DNA of 36,675 bases from a virus. Position numbers and translations under genes: made by a program. Positions 22,183 through 36,675 of this stretch are shown here, one piece after another (position 1 is the first letter of the stretch; each line of letters begins with the position of its first letter). Under the pieces are notes generated by a model. That model did no database searches. It was not told where the DNA came from and saw only the letters and a program-made list of their open reading frames with translations. The stretch spans positions 1 through 36,675 of the IMG/VR virus record IMGVR_UViG_3300035042_000056. One strand, 5' to 3'.

Positions 22183-24921
22183 ATGGGAGTAGGAGCATTA
22201 GTTGGATTAGCAGCAGGAGCTGCAGCAGCTAGTACAGCGGCAAGTGTTACAGTAGCAGCCGGAGCAATGATTGGATTTAGTGTAGGTAATTCTTATGACA
22301 ACTATAAAGAAGCCAAAGAATTTCAAGAAAGCATGAATCAATCAAAAAATTCTCCAACATATTCATTTGGCCCGATTAGTAATACTAAGTCTCATCAGAT
22401 ACCAGTCCCGGTAGTTTATGGCCGGAATCTTGTAGCAGGAAACATAATTAACCAAAAGATTCGCGGCGAAAATGATAATTTAATGGATCTGCAAGTTGGA
22501 ATTTCGGAAGGCCCGATTGAATCAATTTCAGAAATCAAAGCCGATGATAAATCTATTAGTGCAGAAACTAGATTAGGATATAGAAACCAATCTTCATGGT
22601 CGAAAAACGAGCATTCTCAAACATTTCCTTATCTTGCCCATTACTCAACAACTTTAGATGCTGAAAAACTAGAGACATCAGGCACTCCAACTATGACCGC
22701 GATTGTAAAAGGGCGGCATGTAAGAGTTTGGACCGGCAGCCGATGGATAACAAAATACAGTAATAACCCTGCCTGGTGTGTTTTAGATTTTATAAGTAAC
22801 AAAAGATTTGGTTTTGGTGTCGCTGATGCTTTTATAGATTTAGAAACTTTCAAAGAGGCTGCAGAATATGCTGATCAATATGTGGACGGGGAAAAGCGCT
22901 TTGAGTTAGATTTTGTTATTGATGCTAAAAGTTCAGCATTGGATATTCTTAATGAGATGCTTTCTACTTTTAGAGCATTTCTTATCTGGTCCGATGGAAA
23001 ATTAAAATTAAAGATTGATAAACCAGATGTAGCAACTCAAAGTTTTATATTTTCTGATGATGAAGAAACAGATAATATTATCGAAGGAAGCTTTGGAAGG
23101 CGAGGTTCTTCCAGGAAAGAAAGATTAAGAGAAGTTGTAGTTGAATATACGGACCCAGCTGAAAACTTTGAAACTATTGGAGCTAGATTCATAGATAACA
23201 GCGTGTCTGGTGAAGCTATGAAAACTATAACCCTGAATGGTGTTAATAGATTTTCTCAAGCGGGTAGAGAAGCAAGATATTATCAGAAAAAATCAAAGTT
23301 ATGCACTCAAATAATTAGCTTTGGTGCTGGTATAAACTCAATTGAAGCAGAAGTAGGAGATAAAATATTAGTTACTCATGAAAGGCCTGGGTGGGTAGAC
23401 AAACCTTTTCGTATAACAGAAATATCAGAAGACAATGAAGAAAATATGTCTATTACTGCTATTGAATATAATGAAGCAATATATACTGACGATGGTTTAG
23501 TCCAGCAGGAAAATTATGCATCTACATTTAAAAATCCTTTTGAAGCGCCAAAAGAAGTTAACAATTTATCTGTTACTGAATATGGATATACAACTATAGA
23601 TGGAAATCTTAATTCTAATCTAGTTGTTGAATTTGATATTCCTGACGATGAAAGATTTGACCATGCAGTTGTTGATTATTCAGAAGATGGAGGAAATTAT
23701 CAAATAGCTGGAACAACCGAAACTGATGATTATGAAATTAAGAATCTTAAAGTTAATTCCAATTATAAAATTAGAGTTAGATCAGTGTCAAAATATAGAG
23801 GGATAACAAGTGCGGGAGTGGTTTCAAACTCAATAGTTATTTCTGGGAAAGATAATAAACCTGCAGCGCCCAATACTCTGCAAGTAGCTCAAAAAGGAGC
23901 AAAAGTTATTTTTAAATGGTCTGAAGTTGATGAACCAGACATATTAGGTTATGAAATTAGAAAAGGAACCGACTGGGAAAACGGAGATATTCTCGGGACC
24001 AAACTAACTGGGGATAGATGGACATCAGAAAATGAACTAGATGGCACTCACAGATACATGATCAAGTCTATTGATAGAGTTAAGCAAAAATCAGTAAATT
24101 ATACTTCTACTATTTTTGAGGTTTCAGATACAGGCCTCGAACTCAATATAATACAGGAAAGAAATGAACTTAATTATATAGACAATGCTACACTTGAAAA
24201 TTTAAGCAAAATAAATAATAAAATTATGTTTAATCATATGTTTACTCTTAATGATTTGCAAAATTATACTCTTAACGATTGGCCTGATTTGGAAGCTTAT
24301 TCAAACGGAATTCCAGATTTTGAGAAACAGGCAAATTACATTACAGAAGCTATAGACACAGGTCATGTAGGCAGAACTGATATAAGGATTAAAAAAGATT
24401 GGTTTTTTCAAGATTTAGATTTAAGTTTACTTAGTTTCAATGATAGAAATCTAAATGATTTCCCAAATAACAGTATGAATAATCCACCTGCAATATATGA
24501 TACTCAAATTTATGTAAAATTTTCTGATGATAACATAGACTGGTCTGACTGGCAGCAGTATATGACAGGCGAATATAAGTTCAGATACGCGCAATTTAAG
24601 GCTGAAATTAATATAGAAACTGAAAGCACAGAATTTGAAATTGAGCAACTTGAAATGATATTTGATGTTCCTGATTTAGAACTTGTAGAAAGATATATTT
24701 CAGTTGATACAGGTGGGAAAACAATAAATTATTCTGATTATGGGATAGAATTTTATAAAGTTCCGGTTAGATATTCCGCTGATATTGTTCAGAATGGGTC
24801 AACAATGAAATATGCTAACTTTACAAATAAAAGTAAAACAAGTGTAGATGTAAAAATATTAGATATTAACAACAATGATGTCGGAGGGACAATAGAAGAA
24901 TTAATAATAGAAGGATATTAA
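22183..24921 (+). CDS. Host-specificity / central tail-tip protein (gpJ-like) with a fibronectin-III-like region
   Basis: 912 aa. NPAWCVLDFISNKRFGFG is a gpJ-like motif; PAAPNTLQVAQKGAKVIFKWSEVDEPDILGYEIR is FN3-like. Confidence 0.75.
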   Translation: MGVGALVGLAAGAAAASTAASVTVAAGAMIGFSVGNSYDNYKEAKEFQESMNQSKNSPTYSFGPISNTKSHQIPVPVVYGRNLVAGNIINQKIRGENDNLMDLQVGISEGPIESISEIKADDKSISAETRLGYRNQSSWSKNEHSQTFPYLAHYSTTLDAEKLETSGTPTMTAIVKGRHVRVWTGSRWITKYSNNPAWCVLDFISNKRFGFGVADAFIDLETFKEAAEYADQYVDGEKRFELDFVIDAKSSALDILNEMLSTFRAFLIWSDGKLKLKIDKPDVATQSFIFSDDEETDNIIEGSFGRRGSSRKERLREVVVEYTDPAENFETIGARFIDNSVSGEAMKTITLNGVNRFSQAGREARYYQKKSKLCTQIISFGAGINSIEAEVGDKILVTHERPGWVDKPFRITEISEDNEENMSITAIEYNEAIYTDDGLVQQENYASTFKNPFEAPKEVNNLSVTEYGYTTIDGNLNSNLVVEFDIPDDERFDHAVVDYSEDGGNYQIAGTTETDDYEIKNLKVNSNYKIRVRSVSKYRGITSAGVVSNSIVISGKDNKPAAPNTLQVAQKGAKVIFKWSEVDEPDILGYEIRKGTDWENGDILGTKLTGDRWTSENELDGTHRYMIKSIDRVKQKSVNYTSTIFEVSDTGLELNIIQERNELNYIDNATLENLSKINNKIMFNHMFTLNDLQNYTLNDWPDLEAYSNGIPDFEKQANYITEAIDTGHVGRTDIRIKKDWFFQDLDLSLLSFNDRNLNDFPNNSMNNPPAIYDTQIYVKFSDDNIDWSDWQQYMTGEYKFRYAQFKAEINIETESTEFEIEQLEMIFDVPDLELVERYISVDTGGKTINYSDYGIEFYKVPVRYSADIVQNGSTMKYANFTNKSKTSVDVKILDINNNDVGGTIEELIIEGY

Positions 24922-24933
24922 AGGAGTGATCAG

Positions 24934-25629
24934 ATGACTCAAGAATATCATAAATCGTTAGCAGATATGGGAGACTCTAACGGCCCCAAACTGGCCGAAT
25001 ATCTCCATGAAAACTTTGAAACAATAATAAGCCAATGGGCAGGAGCAAGTTCTCCTGGGTCTCCTACTCAAGGCCAACCATGGTTAGATATTTCATCGGG
25101 CTGGACTGACGCTAAATTAAAATTTTGGAACGGCTCAAGCTGGATATTAGCAAATGAGTATAATCCGTATATAAAAGACTTAAGAGTTGCCAGGGGTTCA
25201 AAAGAAACCCTCTGGGAGCGGTTGGAAGTAGCTATGAATGAGGACGGAACTATCAAGTCTGACCTTGCTGAAAATATGACCGAATGGATTGACAGCGCGT
25301 TAACTGTAACATATGTAAGCGCTGAAACTTTTACAGTGCCCGGAGATTACACGGATGTATTTGTCACCAATAGAAAAATAAAAGCGACATTAGATTCTAG
25401 TTCAGTATATTCTGCTGTAGAATCAGCTAATTACAGCTCAACTAATGATGAGACAACTATAGTTCTATTTGATGCAGTAATAGATGGAACAATTCAAAAA
25501 GTAGAGTACGGGCTTGTAAAAGCTGGCCCTGAGGGCTCAAACCCAGAAAACAACTTAATAGACGAAACAACAGGGGATATTTACGAATTTAAAATGATTG
25601 ACGGCTCATTAGCAATGGAGGTTAGATAA
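24934..25629 (+). CDS. Putative tail fibre / fibre-adaptor protein
   Basis: Lies between the gpJ-like protein and the DGR target. The N-terminal GQPWLDISSGWTDAKLKFWNGSSW pattern occurs in fibre N-termini. Confidence 0.4.
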   Translation: MTQEYHKSLADMGDSNGPKLAEYLHENFETIISQWAGASSPGSPTQGQPWLDISSGWTDAKLKFWNGSSWILANEYNPYIKDLRVARGSKETLWERLEVAMNEDGTIKSDLAENMTEWIDSALTVTYVSAETFTVPGDYTDVFVTNRKIKATLDSSSVYSAVESANYSSTNDETTIVLFDAVIDGTIQKVEYGLVKAGPEGSNPENNLIDETTGDIYEFKMIDGSLAMEVR

Positions 25630-25630
25630 C

Positions 25631-25942
25631 ATGAGAGGTTTTCCAAAAGTGCTTAATTCAAGACAGGATTATGAAAATGTGATTAATGACTTTGGCTACA
25701 CACCAAAAGTAAAAAGAGCATACCAGGGGCTGCTAAATACAGCCAAAAAGTATGAGTTTGACAAAGAACTTGCAGCAGAATCTGATAGAACTGGCCCGGA
25801 GCCTGAGTACAAAGTTATGACTCAGGAAGAAGATGGAACAGAAAAGATAGTGCAGTTCAAACTTGTTGATAACCCAAACGGGAAAATATTTAGGTTAGGG
25901 TTCACTATTGATGAAGTCCAGGAGGTGATTGATCAATGTTAA
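25631..25942 (+). CDS. Hypothetical protein (103 aa), fibre-associated by position
   Basis: Translationally coupled on both sides; contains one TGGCCCGG copy. Confidence 0.4.
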   Translation: MRGFPKVLNSRQDYENVINDFGYTPKVKRAYQGLLNTAKKYEFDKELAAESDRTGPEPEYKVMTQEEDGTEKIVQFKLVDNPNGKIFRLGFTIDEVQEVIDQC

Positions 25943-26973
25943 CTTTTGTTGGAGCTGATTCACCTTCATTTTTCAACTTCAAAGGACATATTGAAAAGAG
26001 TGCAGCTGATGAAATTGCAGTGCCGCCTTTGGCATTAAGAATTGACAGGCAGAATCTCAAAAAAGAAACTGATACTATTTTGACTGCAGCAGATAATGAC
26101 GGAAGTTTTGCGAGCTTCACTCTTGGTGAAAACTATTATGTGTATGCACTGCAGTCAGCTGATGGTGCTGAGCCAGAATTTGCAGTTTCAATCAATTCTA
26201 CTTATCCAGACGGTTACACAGAAAATAATTCGAGAAAGATAGGCGGCTTTCATTATGGACGTATCAGAACAAATGCTCAAAGATATGATGATGCAGCCTC
26301 AATTGCAGTCAATATAATTCCTAATTCAGTCTGGTCATTGAACTACAGACCTGCCTGTGACCCGACCGGAATGGTCAAAGTTTCAAACTTCTGGGCTGAT
26401 ATTTATCTTGCCAGTGAAGGCAGCGGCACCTGGCCGGAGACTGAACTTGTGAGTGAATATAACGCAACACCAGTCTCGGGAACTGAAGGTTATAATGATT
26501 ATGATTTCATTAGAGGGCTTGCAAATGTCAACAAAAGAAAATTAACTGGCCAAGAATGGGATATGGCTGCTTACGGAAGTCCCGAAGGCCATGATGGTGA
26601 TAACAATGCCGCCTGGTCTGCAACAAGCAACTCAGGCAGAACAGCAACTGGAACTGTAGAACAAGCGGTTTCCTGCTATAATCTTGTTGATTGTGCAGGT
26701 AACCTTTGGGAAAGAATAGATGAATATATGTATAGATATGCAGGCACTTCTTCATTTGACTGGCATGATGTTCTTAACATGGGAAAAGACAGCAGTTATC
26801 AGCATGGAGAAGCATATATGCAGGGAAATCCTTCTATTGTGGTCCTCCTCGCTGGTGGCAACTTCGGCAATGGCGGTAGTTGTGGTTCTCGGGCGGTCTA
26901 CTCGTACGGTTACCCGTGGTACGTGAACACTACCTTTGGCGTGCGTGGCGCCTGTGATCATCAGTCAGCCTGA
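25936..26973 (+). CDS. DGR target: receptor-binding tail-fibre protein with a C-type-lectin / FGE-like fold and a C-terminal variable region
   Basis: CAGNLWERIDEY (GNxWEW-like) plus the C-terminal GGNFGNGGSCGSRAVYSYGYPWYVNTTFGVRGAC scaffold. The last ~41 codons form the VR that pairs with the TR at 27393-27515. Confidence 0.85.
   Translation: MLTFVGADSPSFFNFKGHIEKSAADEIAVPPLALRIDRQNLKKETDTILTAADNDGSFASFTLGENYYVYALQSADGAEPEFAVSINSTYPDGYTENNSRKIGGFHYGRIRTNAQRYDDAASIAVNIIPNSVWSLNYRPACDPTGMVKVSNFWADIYLASEGSGTWPETELVSEYNATPVSGTEGYNDYDFIRGLANVNKRKLTGQEWDMAAYGSPEGHDGDNNAAWSATSNSGRTATGTVEQAVSCYNLVDCAGNLWERIDEYMYRYAGTSSFDWHDVLNMGKDSSYQHGEAYMQGNPSIVVLLAGGNFGNGGSCGSRAVYSYGYPWYVNTTFGVRGACDHQSA
26840..26962 (+). 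repeat. DGR variable repeat (VR)
   Basis: Aligns without gaps to 27393-27515 at an offset of 553. There are 15 mismatches, 14 of them at TR adenines. Confidence 0.9.
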
Positions 26974-27023
26974 TAATCTGAAAACGGTTTTTGGTTAGGT
27001 TTCGAACTTGAAGGAGTGATGAT

Positions 27024-27371
27024 TTGGCGGATCCGGAAGACTTAGATATATATCAAAAACATTATGATTTTATGTGTTATTTTTTCCCGGTGGTTGATAA
27101 CTTTCCAAAGTACGAAAAATTTGTTCTTTGCACCAGCATAAAAAATATAACACTTAAAATATTTGACTTAATAATAGAAGCTAATGAAACTTATGGTAGT
27201 AAATTGAGGTTTCTTAATAGAATAGATTTGCAGCTTAAAAAATTAAAATTGCAGGTTAGATTTGCAAGAGATATGACTCATTTATCACCGAGAAAACATG
27301 AAATTGTAGTCAAAAAAATAGACGAAATTGGGCGGCTTTTAGGCGGCTGGATTAAGTCTTGTAAAAAATAA
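27024..27371 (+). CDS. avd: Accessory variability determinant (Avd; four-helix-bundle protein)
   Basis: 115 aa between VR and TR. TTG start 7 nt after GAAGGAG. YQKHYDFMCYFFPVVDNFPKYEKFVLCTSIKNITLKIFDLIIEAN matches the four-helix-bundle/Avd pattern. Confidence 0.75.
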   Translation: MADPEDLDIYQKHYDFMCYFFPVVDNFPKYEKFVLCTSIKNITLKIFDLIIEANETYGSKLRFLNRIDLQLKKLKLQVRFARDMTHLSPRKHEIVVKKIDEIGRLLGGWIKSCKK

Positions 27372-27392
27372 ATTTTACAGGGCTAAGGGCGT

Positions 27393-27515
27393 TGGTCCTC
27401 ATCGCTGGTGGCAACTTCAACAATGGCAGTAATTGTGGTTCTCGGACGGTCAACTCGAACAATAACCCGTGGAACGTGAACACTAACATTGGCGTGCGTG
27501 GCGCCTGTGCTCATC
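27393..27515 (+). repeat. DGR template repeat (TR)
   Basis: Non-coding copy of the VR, rich in AAC/AAT codons in the VR frame (VLIAGGNFNNGSNCGSRTVNSNNNPWNVNTNIGVRGAC). I counted 28 adenines. Confidence 0.9.
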
Positions 27516-27766
27516 TAAAAATTTATCAGACAGTATGGGGTCAAGGCCTCTGCTGCAGTGTTCAAAAAGATGAACAGGCCTTTAGTCCTTCCTGAGATAC
27601 ATTTTGTCCCTCCAGGAAAACATATAAATTACTAATTAGATAGCAAGTAGCGAAATATCGAAAGCTGTCACGATTAGTTATGAGCTCGCTCTCATTTGAG
27701 CGGGCTTTAATATTTCACCTAATATATAGAGAGTGGTGATTATTTATCCCGAAAACAGTCAAAAAT
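27516..27766 (+). ncRNA. TR-RT spacer; likely the structured 3' part of the DGR RNA
   Basis: 250 nt, non-coding. Nested inverted repeats: 27543-27549/27576-27582, 27559-27564/27571-27576, 27589-27594/27613-27618, 27683-27691/27698-27706. Confidence 0.5.
27683..27714 (+). terminator. Terminator-like hairpin upstream of the RT start
   Basis: AGCTCGCTC / GAGCGGGCT form a 9-bp stem (one G-U pair) with loop TCATTT, followed by TTAATATT. Confidence 0.45.
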
Positions 27767-28858
27767 TTGTTTGAAAAAATAACTGACTATCATAAATTAG
27801 AGGAAGCAACAAAAAATGCTCAGAAAAGAAAACGATATAAACCGGAAGTATTAAAATTTAATTATAATTTAGAAAGAAATCTTATAGAAATACAAAATGA
27901 GTTAATCTGGAAAACATATAAACAGGGAGAATACAGGCAGTTTTATGTTTATGAGCCAAAGAAAAGATTGATCATGGCGCTCCCTTTCAGAGACAGAGTA
28001 GTTCAATGGAGCATCTATCAGACTCTTTATCCAATATTCGATAGAACATTCTACAGATACAGCTGTGCCTGCAGAAGGAAGAAGGGAACTCACTTTGCTG
28101 CATATCAGCTGCAGGATAAGATAAAGATAATGGATCGAAAGCCTGGCAAAACATATTTTCTCAAAGCTGACGTGTCAAAATATTTTTATCGCATAGTTCA
28201 TAAAAGATTATTTCAGTTAATCAAAAGGAAAATCAGCTGCAGAAATACATTAGAATTAATCTGGCAGATTATTAAAAGTGAAGATGGTGAATTTGGTATT
28301 CAGCTGGGTGATCACTTCTTTGAAAATAAGAAAGTCAAAGGAATTGGCACACCGATCGGTAATTTAATGAGCCAACTTTTTGCTAATATTTATCTTGACT
28401 TTCTCGATAAATTTGTAAAGCATACTCTGGGAGTCAAATATTATATTCGTTATATGGATGACTTCGTGCTTTTGGGCAAAGACAAAAAGAACCTTCACAC
28501 TATCAGGCAAGAAATAGAAATTTTTCTTGACGATTATCTCCAACTGCAGCTTAATAATAAAACTACTGTTGGTCATGTAAGTGAGGGAATTGATTTTTGC
28601 GGATATGTTTTATATCCGAGTTATAGTAATTTAAGAAAATCTACTAAAAAGAAAATGAAAAAGAGGTTCAAATATCTCAACAAAAAGTATTTTGAAGGGA
28701 AGGTGGATATTGAAGATATTAATGCAAGTGTTAATTCCTATTTAGGAATAATTAAGCACTGCGATAGTTATAATTTAAAAATGTCAGTAATAAGCAAGTT
28801 AGATGATCATATACTTGAACAGTTGGATTTAGGAGACCGGTTTAGATTAAAAAGTTGA
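27767..28858 (+). CDS. DGR reverse transcriptase
   Basis: PKKRLIMALPFRDRVVQ (motifs 1-2), GTPIGNLMSQLFANIYL (DGR-diagnostic IGNxxSQ) and YIRYMDDFVLLG (YMDD). There is no maturase or endonuclease domain. TTG is the first canonical start. Confidence 0.9.
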   Translation: MFEKITDYHKLEEATKNAQKRKRYKPEVLKFNYNLERNLIEIQNELIWKTYKQGEYRQFYVYEPKKRLIMALPFRDRVVQWSIYQTLYPIFDRTFYRYSCACRRKKGTHFAAYQLQDKIKIMDRKPGKTYFLKADVSKYFYRIVHKRLFQLIKRKISCRNTLELIWQIIKSEDGEFGIQLGDHFFENKKVKGIGTPIGNLMSQLFANIYLDFLDKFVKHTLGVKYYIRYMDDFVLLGKDKKNLHTIRQEIEIFLDDYLQLQLNNKTTVGHVSEGIDFCGYVLYPSYSNLRKSTKKKMKKRFKYLNKKYFEGKVDIEDINASVNSYLGIIKHCDSYNLKMSVISKLDDHILEQLDLGDRFRLKS

Positions 28859-28921
28859 TGCAATATACAGATAAACAAAAACTTTTGCCTTGTAGCGGGG
28901 GCTGTTTTGAGGTGAAAAGGC

Positions 28922-29380
28922 GTGAATGCAAAGTGGAGACCATTTATTGATGAAGTAATCTATTACTGGAATAAATTTTTTGAACATACCGTAATCAAAG
29001 GTTTTCTTGCGGCAGGGGGCACTATACTGACTATGCTATTTGGGGATATTAATGCAGCAATGCAGGGGTTTCTTATTCTTTTAGCTGCAGACTATATAAC
29101 AGGTTTAACAAAAGCTGGGAAAAGAGGGCAGTTATCAAGCTGGATGTCAAGAAAGGGTTGGGGAAAACTAGCAACCTATTCGATTGTGATTTCTTTAGGG
29201 CATTTGATAACTCAAATAGGCATGGATGGAATGAGAGATTTTGTATTATTGTGGGCTGGAGCAACTGAAGCAATATCAATATTAGAAAATTGTGATGAAT
29301 TAGGTGTAATAATTCCTGATTTTATGCGAGAAAAATTATTGAATACTAAAGAAAATAAATTTGGAGAGGAGCCAGATTAA
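28922..29380 (+). CDS. Holin (Phage_holin_4_1-like)
   Basis: LLAADYITGLTKAGKRGQLSSWMSRKGWGKLATYSIVISLGHL...EAISILENCDELGV. Multiple TM segments; precedes the endolysin. Confidence 0.7.
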   Translation: MNAKWRPFIDEVIYYWNKFFEHTVIKGFLAAGGTILTMLFGDINAAMQGFLILLAADYITGLTKAGKRGQLSSWMSRKGWGKLATYSIVISLGHLITQIGMDGMRDFVLLWAGATEAISILENCDELGVIIPDFMREKLLNTKENKFGEEPD

Positions 29381-29910
29381 TGGATAATATATTTAAAGAA
29401 GCTTTTGAGGAAGTAATGGAAATTGAGGGCGGCTATGTTAACCATAAAGATGATCCCGGGGGAGCGACTAACTTTGGCATTACAGAAGCTGTTGCCAGAA
29501 GAAATGGTTATGAAGGGAACATGAGAGATTTAAAGTTGCATCAGGCCAGAGATATTTATTACAAAGAATTTTGGTTAGATCATAAGTACAACAAAATTCA
29601 AAACCGAGATATTGCAAAAGAAATGTTTGATCAGGCAGTTAACATGGGACAAACTACTGCTAATAGAAATTTACAGAAATCTAACAATTTGTTAACAGCT
29701 GATGATGATATTTATCCTATCAGTGTTGATGGGGTAATGGGGCCGCAAACTCTGAAAGCCATCAATCATTGCAGCAAACCCATTGCTCTTTTTAATATTC
29801 TTAATGGCTATCAGATTAAGCATTATATTAATCTTGCTGAAAATAGCAAAAAATATAAATCATTTATAGCCGGTTGGGCTAATAATCGAATCGAGATTAT
29901 CAGAAAATGA
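29380..29910 (+). CDS. Endolysin: GH108 muramidase with a PG_binding_3 domain
   Basis: EIEGGYVNHKDDPGGATNFGIT (GH108 signature) and VDGVMGPQTLKAIN (peptidoglycan-binding). Confidence 0.8.
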   Translation: MDNIFKEAFEEVMEIEGGYVNHKDDPGGATNFGITEAVARRNGYEGNMRDLKLHQARDIYYKEFWLDHKYNKIQNRDIAKEMFDQAVNMGQTTANRNLQKSNNLLTADDDIYPISVDGVMGPQTLKAINHCSKPIALFNILNGYQIKHYINLAENSKKYKSFIAGWANNRIEIIRK

Positions 29911-30089
29911 ATTTATTCAAAGACTGGGATAAGTTATTAAAAGATGATGATTTTCAGCAAGACTTGATTTTTCTAATATATATAACTATTTTACTTATGT
30001 TCAATGTTATACCGAACGAAACTTTCAGTATGTTGGCAGCGGTTATAATAGGTGGTGATGCAGTAAAAAAGTTGGGAAGGGGAAAATGA
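29907..30089 (+). CDS. Small membrane protein (60 aa), lysis-associated by position
   Basis: ATGA overlap with the endolysin; hydrophobic core LIFLIYITILLMFNVI...MLAAVIIGG. Confidence 0.45.
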   Translation: MNLFKDWDKLLKDDDFQQDLIFLIYITILLMFNVIPNETFSMLAAVIIGGDAVKKLGRGK

Positions 30090-30538
30090 TGGGGCTATCA
30101 ATTAGTAGAGGTGGTGATTTAACACCGAAGCAACCAACTGTAGAAGAAAATATTGCGGCAGCAAATAAAATGCTAGATGAATATGGTAAAAAATTGGACG
30201 GCCAATATATTTATGACAATGGAATGTGGGATTTTTTGCTTTGGAAATATAAAGAATTAGGTAAGCCTGAAAGCGTGAAAGAGAAATTAATTAACCTTGC
30301 TGCTGGTCAAATGATTAATATTATTTTTGGAGGGGGTGATCTTGTGGATAAAGATGCTATTTTAGAACTTGTTGCTAATGCAATGTCTGATATTATGGAC
30401 CAAACAGAACTTGATGACATAGCTTTTGACAAAGCTGCTGATTTTGTAAAAGAACAAATCCCTGGCGATTATATAGAACCTGTAGTTGGCCGAGTTATGG
30501 TTGGAATAGGCGAAGAGTTAATGAAACAAAAAAAATAA
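30086..30538 (+). CDS. Hypothetical soluble acidic protein (150 aa); last gene before attP
   Basis: ATGA overlap with the upstream ORF; followed by a strong terminator. No recognised motif. Confidence 0.5.
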   Translation: MMGLSISRGGDLTPKQPTVEENIAAANKMLDEYGKKLDGQYIYDNGMWDFLLWKYKELGKPESVKEKLINLAAGQMINIIFGGGDLVDKDAILELVANAMSDIMDQTELDDIAFDKAADFVKEQIPGDYIEPVVGRVMVGIGEELMKQKK

Positions 30539-30557
30539 AATAATTATTTAGCATTTA

Positions 30558-30591
30558 ACCTCCAGACAAAATGCCTGGAGGTCTTTTTTTA
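30558..30591 (+). terminator. Rho-independent terminator of the late/lysis operon
   Basis: ACCTCCAG / CTGGAGGT form a perfect 8-bp stem with a 9-nt loop, followed by CTTTTTTTATTT. Confidence 0.75.
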
Positions 30592-30833
30592 TTTATAGAG
30601 AACTATATAAAGAGAGAATCCTGCACAAATCCTGCACCCAATCAGTTAACATATGTTAATATAATGAATTTGGAAAGAAAATAAAAACCCTATAATCTCC
30701 GTTATATCGTAGATTGGTTAATATTTGTTAATAATAGTAATTTGTACTCGCATAACATGTGATTGTGCGCATAAAATAACTAAAGTATTAATATAACAGG
30801 GATTATAGGGAATGGTCAGTGCAAAATCCTGCA
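30592..30833. other. Candidate attP region
   Basis: A non-coding ~240 bp adjacent to int, dense in direct and inverted repeats (see the repeat features and the attP finding). Confidence 0.45.
30617..30637 (+). repeat. Tandem pair AATCCTGCAC-N-AATCCTGCAC (distal)
   Basis: Exact copies at 30617-30626 and 30628-30637. Confidence 0.9.
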
Positions 30834-30845
30834 CTAATCCTGCAC
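30825..30845 (+). repeat. Tandem pair AATCCTGCAC-N-AATCCTGCAC (int-proximal; overlaps the int stop codon)
   Basis: Exact copies at 30825-30834 and 30836-30845, in the same orientation as the distal pair 208 bp away. Confidence 0.9.
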
Positions 30846-32006
30846 TGAGAAAACGGACCCTACAGCTTTTGAAATATCATTTCTCGCTCTTTCAAAATCT
30901 TTCTTTAGAAAATGGCTGTAAGTATCAGCAGTAATCACGTAAGAAGAGTGGCCGAGTAACTTTTGAAGTTCTTTAATATTTTTGTTTTCAGCTAAAAATA
31001 GAGATGCAAAAGTGTGTCGAAATATATGGGATGTGATCCAGTCAGGGAAGCCGCCAGCTTCTCTGGCTTTTCTTATTTTATTCTGTACAGTTCTGGGAGC
31101 ATAATGTTCTCCATCATCTTTGCAAAGAATTAAATTATGGTCCTTATATTCATCGCCTAAGTGCATTTTCATTTCCTGCTGCCTTTTCCAGATACCGCGA
31201 TAAAAGTTTGCTAGGCTATCTGATATAGGTATCTTTCTAAACCTATCAGCCGCTTTCGGAGTCTCTTTAAATACAGTTCCTCTGCCGATAACATAGACAG
31301 CAACCTGCTCAACAGTAATAATCCCCTTGCTAAAGTTTAAATCCTTCCACCTGGAGCCTATCATCTCCTCAAGACACATTCCGGTATTAATTGCAATGTA
31401 ACAATAATCAAATAGATACTGATCATAATCCTGAACAAATTCTAGCCATTTTTTAAGCATATCTCTATTGATTGCTTTTACTTTTTTCTTTTTCTTTGTG
31501 ACTTTTCGCTGAGTTTTGCCACCAGGCTTCCTGACATTCTGTATTGGATTTTGATAAATATAATTCATTTCATCGGCATAAGTGAGAGCAGAAGAGATAA
31601 TCGCATAATGATATTGTTGAGTTTTTGTACTTCCGCCGCGCTTTCGAATAGAAGTGAGGTAAGACTGAATGTGAGCCGGCTGAATCTCTTTAAGTTTTAA
31701 TTTACCCAGCATTTTTAGAACTTGATGATAGAGTACATTATAGTACCTATCATGAGTAACAGGAGACAGCTGCTCATCTACATACTCATCAAACCACCTG
31801 TCAATATACTGCTTGAAAGTCATGTTGGCAAATTCCATCAAGATGCCCGTTTCTTTTTCTAGCTCTTTATCTCTGGCCCACCTTTGAGCTTCTTTTTTTG
31901 TATCGAAAGTGCTGCTTTCTCTAATTTGTTTACCTTCAGAATCCCGGCCCATATAGACAAATACTTCCCAGTTGCCTGCTTTAGTCTTTCTGGGTTCACT
32001 TGCCAT
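30834..32006 (-). CDS. int: Tyrosine integrase with an N-terminal arm-type DNA-binding domain
   Basis: C-terminal HIFRHTFASLFL...LLGHSSYVITADTYSH (R..H-x-x-R..Y catalytic pattern). The N-terminal KAGNWEVFVYMGRDSEGKQIRESSTFDTKKEAQRW is arm-binding-like. Confidence 0.9.
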   Translation of the reverse strand: MASEPRKTKAGNWEVFVYMGRDSEGKQIRESSTFDTKKEAQRWARDKELEKETGILMEFANMTFKQYIDRWFDEYVDEQLSPVTHDRYYNVLYHQVLKMLGKLKLKEIQPAHIQSYLTSIRKRGGSTKTQQYHYAIISSALTYADEMNYIYQNPIQNVRKPGGKTQRKVTKKKKKVKAINRDMLKKWLEFVQDYDQYLFDYCYIAINTGMCLEEMIGSRWKDLNFSKGIITVEQVAVYVIGRGTVFKETPKAADRFRKIPISDSLANFYRGIWKRQQEMKMHLGDEYKDHNLILCKDDGEHYAPRTVQNKIRKAREAGGFPDWITSHIFRHTFASLFLAENKNIKELQKLLGHSSYVITADTYSHFLKKDFERARNDISKAVGSVFSVQD

Positions 32007-36215: not shown

Positions 36216-36675
36216 ATGGCTAGGCCACAAAAATCAGGGATAGATTACTTCACTATAGACACCAACATGGAAGACAAAATTAAACTTGTAGAGGCTAAAT
36301 ATGGCTTAGAAGGATTCGGGTTTTTGATTAAACTCTGGCAGAAAATTTACAGCCAGAAGTATTACATCGACTGGACAGAGGAAATCCAATTACTATTCAG
36401 TAGCGAGGTTAATGTCAACATTAACAAGATTAATGACATCATTAACGATTGTGTCAAATGGGGCGTTTTTAACCAGGAACTTTTTGAAAAACACAATATA
36501 TTAACCAGTCACGGAATCCAGTTAAGATATAAGGAAGCCACCTATAGACGCAAAAAAGTGGAGATGAAAGAGGATTATTTGCTGCTAAAAGATGATGAAA
36601 TTAACTCAAATATAGTTAATGAGAACAATAACCCGATTAATGATAACAAAAACCTAAAAAATGATGACAAAAGTA
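36216..36675 (+). CDS. Replisome organizer / replication initiator, N-terminal part. It continues in frame into 1-477 across the circular junction; the full protein is about 269 aa.
   Basis: ATG at 36216 and open to the window end. 36549 minus 36216 is a multiple of 3, so the frame joins frame 1 of bases 1-477. The N-terminus MARPQKSGIDYFTIDTNMEDKIKLVEAKYGLEGFGFLIKLW looks like the DUF4373-type N-domain of phage replisome organizers. Confidence 0.7.
   Translation, partial: MARPQKSGIDYFTIDTNMEDKIKLVEAKYGLEGFGFLIKLWQKIYSQKYYIDWTEEIQLLFSSEVNVNINKINDIINDCVKWGVFNQELFEKHNILTSHGIQLRYKEATYRRKKVEMKEDYLLLKDDEINSNIVNENNNPINDNKNLKNDDKS
36549..36675. repeat. Terminal direct repeat, copy B; identical to 1-127
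   Basis: Same 127-nt string as the window start. Confidence 0.95.

Follow-up and report, generated by a model that had tools for sequence, protein, structure and literature searches.

The window analysed here is the whole 36,675-nucleotide (nt) virus record IMGVR_UViG_3300035042_000056 from IMG/VR, and the element in question is a diversity-generating retroelement (DGR) at positions 25936-28858. A sequence-only reading of the same DNA had proposed that the four parts of a DGR lie here on the plus strand, in the order known from the Bordetella phage BPP-1. An open reading frame (ORF) scan, together with the location of the repeat, placed all four parts where that reading had put them:

25936-26973, plus strand: target gene (variable protein), 345 amino acids (aa), Mtd-like, with a C-terminal C-type lectin (CLec)/formylglycine-generating enzyme (FGE)-type fold (ORF scan, Pfam, PHROG, PDB, AlphaFold2)
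26840-26962, plus strand: variable repeat (VR), codons 302-342 of the 345-codon target, a 123-nt repeat shared with the template repeat
26938-26962, plus strand: 3' end of the VR, resembling an initiation of mutagenic homing (IMH) element, GC-rich block GGCGTGCGTGGCGCC followed by TGTG-A-TCATC
27024-27371, plus strand: avd, 115 aa, four-helix protein (NCBIfam, Pfam, PDB, AlphaFold2 with Foldseek)
27393-27515, plus strand: template repeat (TR), the non-coding copy of the 123-nt repeat, with 28 adenines
27516-27745, plus strand: spacer (Sp) RNA region between TR and the reverse transcriptase gene, the most conserved cassette segment across the family
27746-28858, plus strand: DGR reverse transcriptase (RT); canonical-start ORF 27767-28858 (363 aa), probable start at ATC 27746 (370 aa)

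VR and TR are 88% identical and differ at 15 of 123 positions. At 14 of these the TR carries an adenine and the VR another base (G, T or C), always in codon position 1 or 2, and the hypergeometric probability that at least 14 of 15 mismatches would fall on the 28 adenines among 123 nt of TR is 5.5e-10. The variable sites observed in VR extend across 26848-26935. This adenine bias bears out the earlier proposal that a 123-bp non-coding near-copy of the last ~41 codons of the target serves as template. The objection that the copy might be a generic repeat fails: a BLAST search and a scan with the TR adenines as wildcards revealed no third copy and no second VR in the genome, and the mismatches between the two copies present are adenine-specific. 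The TR specifies 17 variable codons, 11 of them AAY, corresponding to about 3.5e16 peptides, and no stop codon can be reached by substitution of its adenines. Within the protein family the mean entropy is 2.9 bits at codons containing TR adenines, against 1.1 bits at the other VR codons.

A 67-aa ORF (27392-27595) overlaps the TR because the TR mirrors the reading frame of the VR. Its counterpart in Bacillus phage BalMu-1 is gp52 (L003 4740-4871), a hypothetical protein in RefSeq and probably the same artefact.

The target protein was examined by sequence and by structure. It matches the Pfam family mtd_2nd (PF21916; E=1e-23, 84 bits against a cut-off of 24.6) and PHROG 11262 'tail protein' (E=1e-51), and passes no NCBIfam model; close relatives of the target also match PF03781. 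In a phmmer search of the PDB the best match is Mtd of BPP-1 (E=4e-15, target residues 52-342 aligned), the alignment beginning at target residue 52 and Mtd residue 94. An AlphaFold2 (AF2) model derived from 55 homologues has a pLDDT of 93.3 and a pTM of 0.91. Its top five Foldseek matches are the Mtd variants 1yu0-1yu4, aligned over the whole length with TM scores of 0.72-0.75 and E about 5e-21; other DGR variable proteins and FGE-fold enzymes rank after Mtd. Among these, Treponema TvpA (2y3c) and Thermus TaqVP (5vf4) display their variable residues on a CLec/FGE-type fold, as the target does. They match at the CLec domain only (E=1e-6 to 7e-4, TM scores of about 0.3-0.36), lack the Mtd second domain, and are cellular surface proteins rather than phage tail proteins. 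The lectin/FGE-type scaffold that had been read from the 345-aa sequence is thus supported by the model as well as by the motifs LLAGGNFGNGGSCGSR...PW...GVRGACDH. Judged from sequence and model together, the target is a full-length Mtd homologue, comprising the Mtd second domain and a C-terminal CLec domain. By analogy with Mtd it would be the receptor-binding protein of the phage, and its diversification would then permit tropism switching.

The 115-aa ORF that follows the target had been described as a four-helix, Avd-like protein, and this description stands. The protein passes the NCBIfam equivalog DivGenRetAVD (106.4 bits, cut-off 80) and Pfam bAvd (96 bits, cut-off 40), and its sole sequence relative in the PDB is Bbp7 of BPP-1 (4dwl). 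The single-sequence AF2 model consists of four long helices, and Foldseek ranks first 4dwl and the Avd chains of 8ub7, 8ubb and 8ube, which are cryo-electron microscopy entries of a DGR ribonucleoprotein (RNP). PADLOC returned nothing for Avd.

The class of the RT was assigned from pairwise and profile scores. Its best solved relative is the Bordetella DGR RT (8ub7_A; 172 bits, E=1e-49), whereas group II RTs score at most 68 bits. BLASTP gives 34% identity with the BPP-1 enzyme Brt (NC_005357) across 340 aa (E=5e-62); the nearest RT among GenBank phages is that of BalMu-1, with 52.6% aa identity. The motifs PIGNLMSQ and YMDD are present, and R74, D138, I181-G-x-x-x-S186-Q187 and D215/D216 are conserved with Brt. 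DGR RTs carry the signature [I/V/L]GxxxSQ in place of QGxxxSP, and R74 and I181 were shown experimentally to promote adenine mutagenesis (PMC7826257). On its sequence the RT falls into the DGR clade, closest to Brt.

The sequence-only reading was right about both RT motifs but probably not about the start of the 363-aa protein. An N-terminal extension, IPKTVKNLFEKIT, aligns with MGKRHRNLIDQIT of Brt and has its beginning ahead of TTG 27767, which is the first canonical start. An in-frame TGA at 27737 sets the upstream limit, and the only plausible start is ATC 27746 (ATT in L007, L013 and L014), located 6 nt after a sequence resembling a ribosome-binding site, GAGAGTGGTGA. With this start the conserved Arg becomes residue 74, as in Brt, and the true start of RT is probably ATC 27746, 7 codons before the canonical one. 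Pfam detects no endonuclease domain, as had been stated. The accompanying denial of a maturase domain depends partly on how it is worded: the group II RT/maturase model does align, in its X/thumb part and at a score below the cut-off, with the C-terminal thumb.

Relatives of the cassette comprise two ENA contigs with identical RT and eleven IMG/VR contigs that share the GC-rich IMH core. What is more, a scan of one genome per prokaryotic species yielded two relatives, both in Halanaerobiales: a metagenome-assembled genome (MAG; L004) with the full cassette and an RT 72% identical, and a syntenic prophage in Halanaerobium salsuginis ATCC 51327 (L005/L010, NZ_FOTI01000043). Mismatches fall on TR adenines in 12 of 13 cases in L002, in 14 of 14 within the repeat in the MAG, and in 113 of 128 over ten independent VR/TR pairs. 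Among ten distinct VRs, 24 of the 27 TR-adenine columns are variable; the TRs are near-invariant, with only 4 distinct sequences. Four contigs from four different metagenomes (L006, L007, L008 and L016) show no differences in the 700 nt upstream of VR and 0-1 in the 400 nt downstream, yet 12-18 of 94 VR positions differ. Likewise, the H. salsuginis VR differs from that of L013 at 17 of 94 positions, and the upstream 700 nt are identical. Between the TRs of the window and L002, all six non-adenine differences are mirrored in the matching VRs, and therefore information has flowed from TR to VR since these two lineages split. Both patterns, the VR-only differences among relatives and the mirroring of TR in VR, support a DGR that is apparently active.

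Several contigs end in the VR-avd-TR region: L015 begins inside VR, L012 stops between VR and TR, and L001 begins inside avd. Ends of this kind would be expected of assemblies broken by VR heterogeneity and by the VR/TR repeat.

The IMH-like segment at the 3' end of VR is homologous to IMH/IMH* of BPP-1, in which the first mismatch is at the same position (VR CTGTGAC, TR CTGTGCC). In the window this position, A at 26957 in VR and C at 27510 in TR, is the sole VR/TR mismatch that does not involve a TR adenine. Among the relatives the VR base is C, A or T and its counterpart is C in every TR; in most of them VR equals TR through the IMH-like stretch and diverges only beyond it. We considered the A/C pair as a fixed IMH/IMH* discriminator and rejected it, as C occurs in both copies of most relatives. 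Position 26957 would instead be a site private to VR: its TR partner sits in an 8-nt tail predicted never to be reverse-transcribed, so that the VR base can drift, which would explain the non-adenine mismatch.

At 26959-26973, across the final codons of the target and its stop codon, lies an inverted repeat with a 5-bp stem, ATCAG-N5-CTGAT. The stem is kept and the loop is variable in the window, L002, L006, L010 and L014, whereas the MAG L004 lacks the repeat. As a cruciform like that of BPP-1 it is too weak.

The region around TR and the spacer contains a series of putative RNA elements:

27379-27390, plus strand: upstream strand AGGGCUAAGGGC of a cPRT-Stop-like duplex, 12 bp with 27578-27589, ending 2 nt before TR
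27531-27555, plus strand: Avd-binding-like stem-loop (Sp16-40), 10 bp with one bulged base and a UCAA tetraloop; 3 compensatory pairs in L004
27569-27577, plus strand: primer strand GAUGAACA (Sp54-61), pairing with TR 27508-27515 (UGCUCAUC) as two pairs, a mismatch and five pairs
27578-27589, plus strand: GCCUUUAGUCCU (Sp63-74), the strand that the spacer contributes to the cPRT-Stop-like duplex, immediately behind the A-G dinucleotide
27590-27617, plus strand: stem-loop after the stop strand (helix 4, in which 98% of cells are paired and one pair is compensatory), followed by an A-run at 27618-27621
27631-27678, plus strand: long covarying helix ACUAAUU...GAUUAGU around an inner stem; compensatory versions GCUGGCC/AGUCAGC in L004 and GCUGGUA/GACCAGU in BalMu-1
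27682-27707, plus strand: terminator-like hairpin of 10 bp (6 G-C) and a T-rich tail, separating the DGR RNA core from the RT start

Nucleotide identity to L006/L007 is 96% for the spacer, compared with 85% for RT and 74% for avd. The spacer RNA folds with a z-score of -3.05, none of 200 shuffled sequences being equally stable, and 11 of 54 consensus pairs show compensatory changes. In 207 DGRs an Avd-binding stem-loop was reported just downstream of TR (bioRxiv 10.1101/2023.10.23.563531), and the stem-loop at Sp16-40 agrees with these in position and shape. The primer duplex of BPP-1 has been defined experimentally as TR118-125:Sp49-56, A56 and G57 then being followed by the stop duplex (PMC6182149). 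It pairs as two pairs, a mismatch, three pairs, a wobble-type pair (:) and a pair, with the mismatch at the same base pair 3 as in the window, and L004 keeps the primer duplex in this BPP-1 pattern. By this correspondence the priming adenosine would be A27576 (Sp A61), followed by G27577, as the counterparts of A56 and G57, and the first templated base would be TR G27507, the counterpart of BPP-1 G117.

The stop-like duplex is maintained in L004 through two compensatory changes and has an 11-bp equivalent in BalMu-1; in BPP-1, avd369-379 (AGGGCAGGCUG) pairs with Sp59-70 likewise. The cPRT Stop of BPP-1 was described as a stem-loop with adenosines after it (bioRxiv 10.1101/2023.10.23.563531), which 27590-27621 parallels. 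The helix at 27631-27678 is a candidate RT-binding element. In the terminator-like hairpin, one-sided changes in L001 and L013 preserve pairing (U-G to C-G and U-A to U-G); a counterpart is absent in BalMu-1. This hairpin might mark the 3' end of the template RNA or act as an attenuator of RT expression. Taken together, the computations give moderate support for structured DGR RNA elements in the window.

Comparison of window positions 26700-32006 with L001 and L002 revealed a sharp mosaic boundary inside the DGR. The RT, holin and endolysin genes and the next ORF are 100% identical at the nt level in both contigs, and the integrase gene is 100% identical in L001 and about 95% identical over the part present in L002. 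Spacer identity is about 97% and TR identity about 93-94%. Identity is only 75-80% in avd (L001 and L002) and, for L002 alone, in the 3' part of the target. That RT, lysis and integrase genes can be 100% identical next to a target-Avd-TR unit at 75-80% suggests swapping of the whole unit onto a common RT and spacer; the unit appears to have been exchanged against these constant parts. The family also includes a cassette that has decayed. In H. salsuginis the counterpart of window 27031-28457 is deleted, which removes avd, TR and RT residues 1 to ~230; the 233/103/345-aa tail genes and the VR are retained and a 144-aa C-terminal RT fragment is left. By its sequence this DGR is decayed and its target frozen.

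The window is an entire JGI contig with an exact 127-nt direct terminal repeat (1-127 and 36549-36675), and is therefore a complete circular assembly, most likely representing a complete circular phage genome of ~36,548 bp (~36.5 kb). Profile and family matches identify the terminase and portal, the major proteins of head and tail, a tape measure of 976 aa and a tip resembling gpJ. Beyond these lie two ORFs without family match and the DGR, then the genes of a holin and a GH108 endolysin, and after them those of an integrase and an S24-type repressor. The genes flanking the cassette are:

22183-24921, plus strand: gpJ-like central tail fibre/tip (PHROG 31 'central tail fiber J', E=7e-88; Pfam Phage-tail_3 and fn3)
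24934-25629, plus strand: 231-aa ORF, no family match
25631-25942, plus strand: 103-aa ORF, no family match, with a 7-nt overlap with the target start
28922-29380, plus strand: holin, downstream lysis module
29380-29910, plus strand: GH108 endolysin with a PG_binding_3 domain, downstream lysis module

The cassette thus sits at the junction of tail and lysis genes, as had been proposed, after the gpJ-like tip gene and before the holin and endolysin genes. The sequence-only reading had left lineage and host to database searches. The search run here points to a phage that, by its gene content, is temperate and of siphovirus type, with relatives in Halanaerobiales, which are Firmicutes with an outer membrane. 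Megablast found no nucleotide-level match among GenBank phages to 24.7 kb of the window. The 233/103/345-aa gene order of the tail module recurs in the H. salsuginis prophage, and the GC content of the window, 35%, is compatible with a Halanaerobiales host. These relatives point to Halanaerobium, or to a close relative of it in Halanaerobiales, as the most likely host. The window contains no tRNA genes. In the intergenic region beside the integrase gene (30539-30833), a tandem AATCCTGCAC motif occurs in two copies, at 30617-30637 and 30825-30845, and a 20-nt inverted repeat lies at 30688-30707 and 30791-30810; these are candidates for attP and the arm-binding sites of the integrase.

The closest parallel among described systems is the prototype, BPP-1. 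Its gene order (mtd-avd-TR-brt) is that of the window, and so is the genome slot (tail fibre, mtd, avd, TR, brt, lysis, attP, integrase). Mtd and the target share 28% identity along with the fold noted above (TM scores of 0.72-0.75), and both Avd and RT are homologous to their BPP-1 counterparts (34% identity for RT). The 3' ends of the two TRs are near-identical (GGCGCCTGUGCUCAUC vs GGCGUCUGUGCCCAUC). In both systems the primer duplex has its mismatch at base pair 3, an A-G priming dinucleotide directly precedes the stop duplex, the upstream strand of that duplex begins with AGGGC, and R74 and I181-Q187 are conserved in the RT.

On the other hand, the host of the window phage would belong to Bacillota, order Halanaerobiales, whereas that of BPP-1 is a member of the Betaproteobacteria. 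Judged from the genes, the virion has a long tail with a tape measure and a gpJ-like tip, in contrast to the short tail of BPP-1. The spacer is 230-251 nt instead of 144 nt, with an additional covarying helix and terminator-like hairpin, and the VR/TR pair is 123 nt, with 28 adenines, instead of 134 nt. There is only one IMH/IMH*-type mismatch within the repeat, the GC-rich hairpin/cruciform that BPP-1 has after VR is missing, and the RT start is probably non-AUG (AUC). The target lacks ~40 N-terminal residues of BPP-1 Mtd, and the sharp mosaic boundary inside the cassette is a further difference.

BalMu-1 (NC_030945) is the nearest deposited phage, with 52.6% aa identity in RT and 38% in Avd. 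It has the same order of target, Avd, TR, RT, holin and endolysin, a 120-nt VR/TR pair, and a spacer core helix and 11-bp stop-like duplex like those of the window. Unlike the window phage, it is Mu-like with a PBSX-type baseplate and tail, its target is of SUMF1/FGE type with no significant BLAST similarity to the Mtd-like target, its spacer is short and without the terminator-like hairpin, and a GC-rich hairpin follows its VR; there is no nucleotide-level similarity to the window. In the searchable literature we found no description of the BalMu-1 DGR and none of a DGR in Halanaerobium or its phages, although large DGR catalogues may already list relatives. The checks and refuting conditions attached to the sequence-only reading, as far as they were run, all favoured a DGR. 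Of the DGR features looked for in the sequence, the defining ones are all present and one accessory element, the hairpin after VR, is absent. The cassette is thus genuine and complete; it adds a new member to a known class, the BPP-1/Mtd type of DGR, and the phage that carries it is itself undescribed.

We hold with high confidence that the window encodes a functional BPP-1-type DGR in a complete temperate siphovirus-type phage, the host of which is most likely Halanaerobium or a close relative within Halanaerobiales. Several observations weigh against this conclusion. The strong GC-rich hairpin or cruciform that follows VR in BPP-1 was not found downstream of VR in the window: the DNA fold of this segment has an energy of -4.5 kcal/mol against -19.2 kcal/mol for BPP-1, folding of 26938-27023 gives z=-2.1, and besides the 5-bp inverted repeat there is only an AT-rich stem. 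Such a hairpin is an accessory DGR feature that serves target recognition in BPP-1, and is neither universal nor defining. The nested TR-proximal RNA architecture is 99.2% paired on the alignment with seven compensatory pairs, compared with 36-55% and 0-1 in slid controls and with values reached by none of 500 shuffles, but the structure was derived from the window sequence and is hence favoured in the slid controls. All of the compensatory changes counted in that architecture come from one diverged lineage, L004, and covariation in BalMu-1 is confined to helix 27631-27678, which is more distal. VR-only diversification is strongest in a sister lineage, and the body of the target there has only ~80% nt identity to the window. 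The current activity of this particular genome is something we infer from its intact parts and its relatives. A few VR/TR differences do not involve adenines: L006, L009 and L011, which represent one VR allele in three samples, have G to C, C to G and G to C at repeat positions 1, 21 and 32, and these may be ordinary point mutations or rare misincorporation at non-adenine positions. Finally, homologous prophages are the basis of the host call, and neither an att site nor a CRISPR spacer match enters into it.

Three other explanations of the locus were weighed against a functional, adhesin-diversifying DGR. There is next to no chance that the RT is an enzyme of another class (that of a group II intron, a retron or an abortive infection (Abi)/DRT system) and the 123-nt repeat an unrelated duplication, and the sequence data already refute this idea. 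It could appeal to the best-scoring NCBIfam model, group_II_RT_mat (TIGR04416), to PADLOC, which matched the RT only with generic RT and DRT/UG models (the generic RT model best), and to GenBank annotators, who labelled the BalMu-1 homologue 'retron-type'. However, the NCBIfam scores are far under the family cut-offs (127 bits against 300 for group_II_RT_mat, 54 against 200 for Drt3a and 40 against 235 for retron St85), the preference for Brt over group II enzymes is large (172 against at most 68 bits), and the motif is IGxxxSQ, not QGxxxSP (PMC7826257). Rfam at gathering thresholds reported nothing in the window and thus no group II intron or retron RNA, the adjacent Avd passes its equivalog cut-off, and the repeat mismatches are adenine-specific (P=5e-10). 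The earlier view that the RT is not of retron, group II or Abi type is therefore upheld.

A second explanation, that the cassette looks intact but is currently silent in this genome, its VR/TR differences recording past activity only, strikes us as quite improbable. The lineage of the window offers a single partial sibling with a VR, L002, the flanks of which have diverged as well (77-80%), and therefore a recent VR-only change cannot be demonstrated for this exact phage; the deletion of avd, TR and RT residues 1 to ~230 in H. salsuginis shows that DGRs are lost in the family. Nevertheless, all of the ORFs are intact and the catalytic and signature residues and RNA elements are all present. 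The RT gene is 100% nt identical in three independent samples, with the spacer at ~97%, which fits purifying selection, and TR changes have been mirrored in VR since the window and L002 diverged.

It is also unlikely, in our judgement, that the DGR is real but diversifies something other than a host-receptor adhesin, such as a protein for a non-host ligand or for a role in the lysogen. Consistent with such a role, two ORFs without family match lie between gpJ and the target, the mounting of Mtd on the short tail of BPP-1 is not simply transferable to a siphovirus-type phage, and the alignment with Mtd starts only at target residue 52 and Mtd residue 94, so that the N-terminal attachment region differs. 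Against it, the modelled fold is that of Mtd over the full length, and Mtd is the proven receptor-binding protein of BPP-1. The target is the last gene of the tail module, overlaps the preceding ORF by 7 nt and belongs to a PHROG 'tail protein' family, and its variable residues are located in the same C-terminal CLec segment as those of Mtd.

For a functional DGR of the BPP-1 type, the standard mechanism of mutagenic retrohoming, in which cDNA synthesis leads to RT-dependent change of VR, is the best explanation of the observed pattern; RNP formation, the exact priming site, the receptor-binding role and the host are the parts of this account that we infer. The transcript of the avd 3' end, TR and spacer would fold into a defined RNA that contains the Avd-binding stem-loop and two duplexes, the primer duplex of TR with spacer and one that the spacer forms with the sequence just upstream of TR, and the RT-Avd complex would bind this folded RNA. 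The cDNA would be primed from spacer A27576, start at TR G27507 and proceed 5'-ward through TR, with random nucleotides inserted opposite the 28 template adenines. It would then replace its homologue, the VR in the 3'-terminal part of the Mtd-like gene. As many as 17 codons, on that face of the C-type-lectin-fold tip which binds the ligand, would be re-randomised (~3.5e16 variants), and the scaffold would be kept. Such a tip could let the phage change or broaden its receptor use.

A more speculative proposal, which we regard as possible but doubtful, is that in this phage family the cassette has a built-in throttle on DGR expression unlike anything described for BPP-1, combined with a modular target/Avd/TR unit. 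The conserved hairpin at 27682-27707 may end the template RNA just past its functional core, and RT would be translated only from read-through transcripts, from the non-AUG (AUC/AUU) start at 27746. If this were true, abundant template RNA would be uncoupled from scarce RT.

The finding leaves the understanding of DGRs unchanged. It adds a well-documented DGR of the BPP-1 type, apparently an active one, to a phage lineage and a host group, the halophilic anaerobes of Halanaerobiales, for which the searchable literature reports none. The near base-for-base agreement between the Bordetella and Halanaerobium phages in the priming site, the stop duplex and the Avd-binding stem-loop supports the generality of the BPP-1 RNP mechanism. 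In Halanaerobium-dominated brines, natural sibling phages that differ only in VR would be a resource for linking VR sequence to host range.

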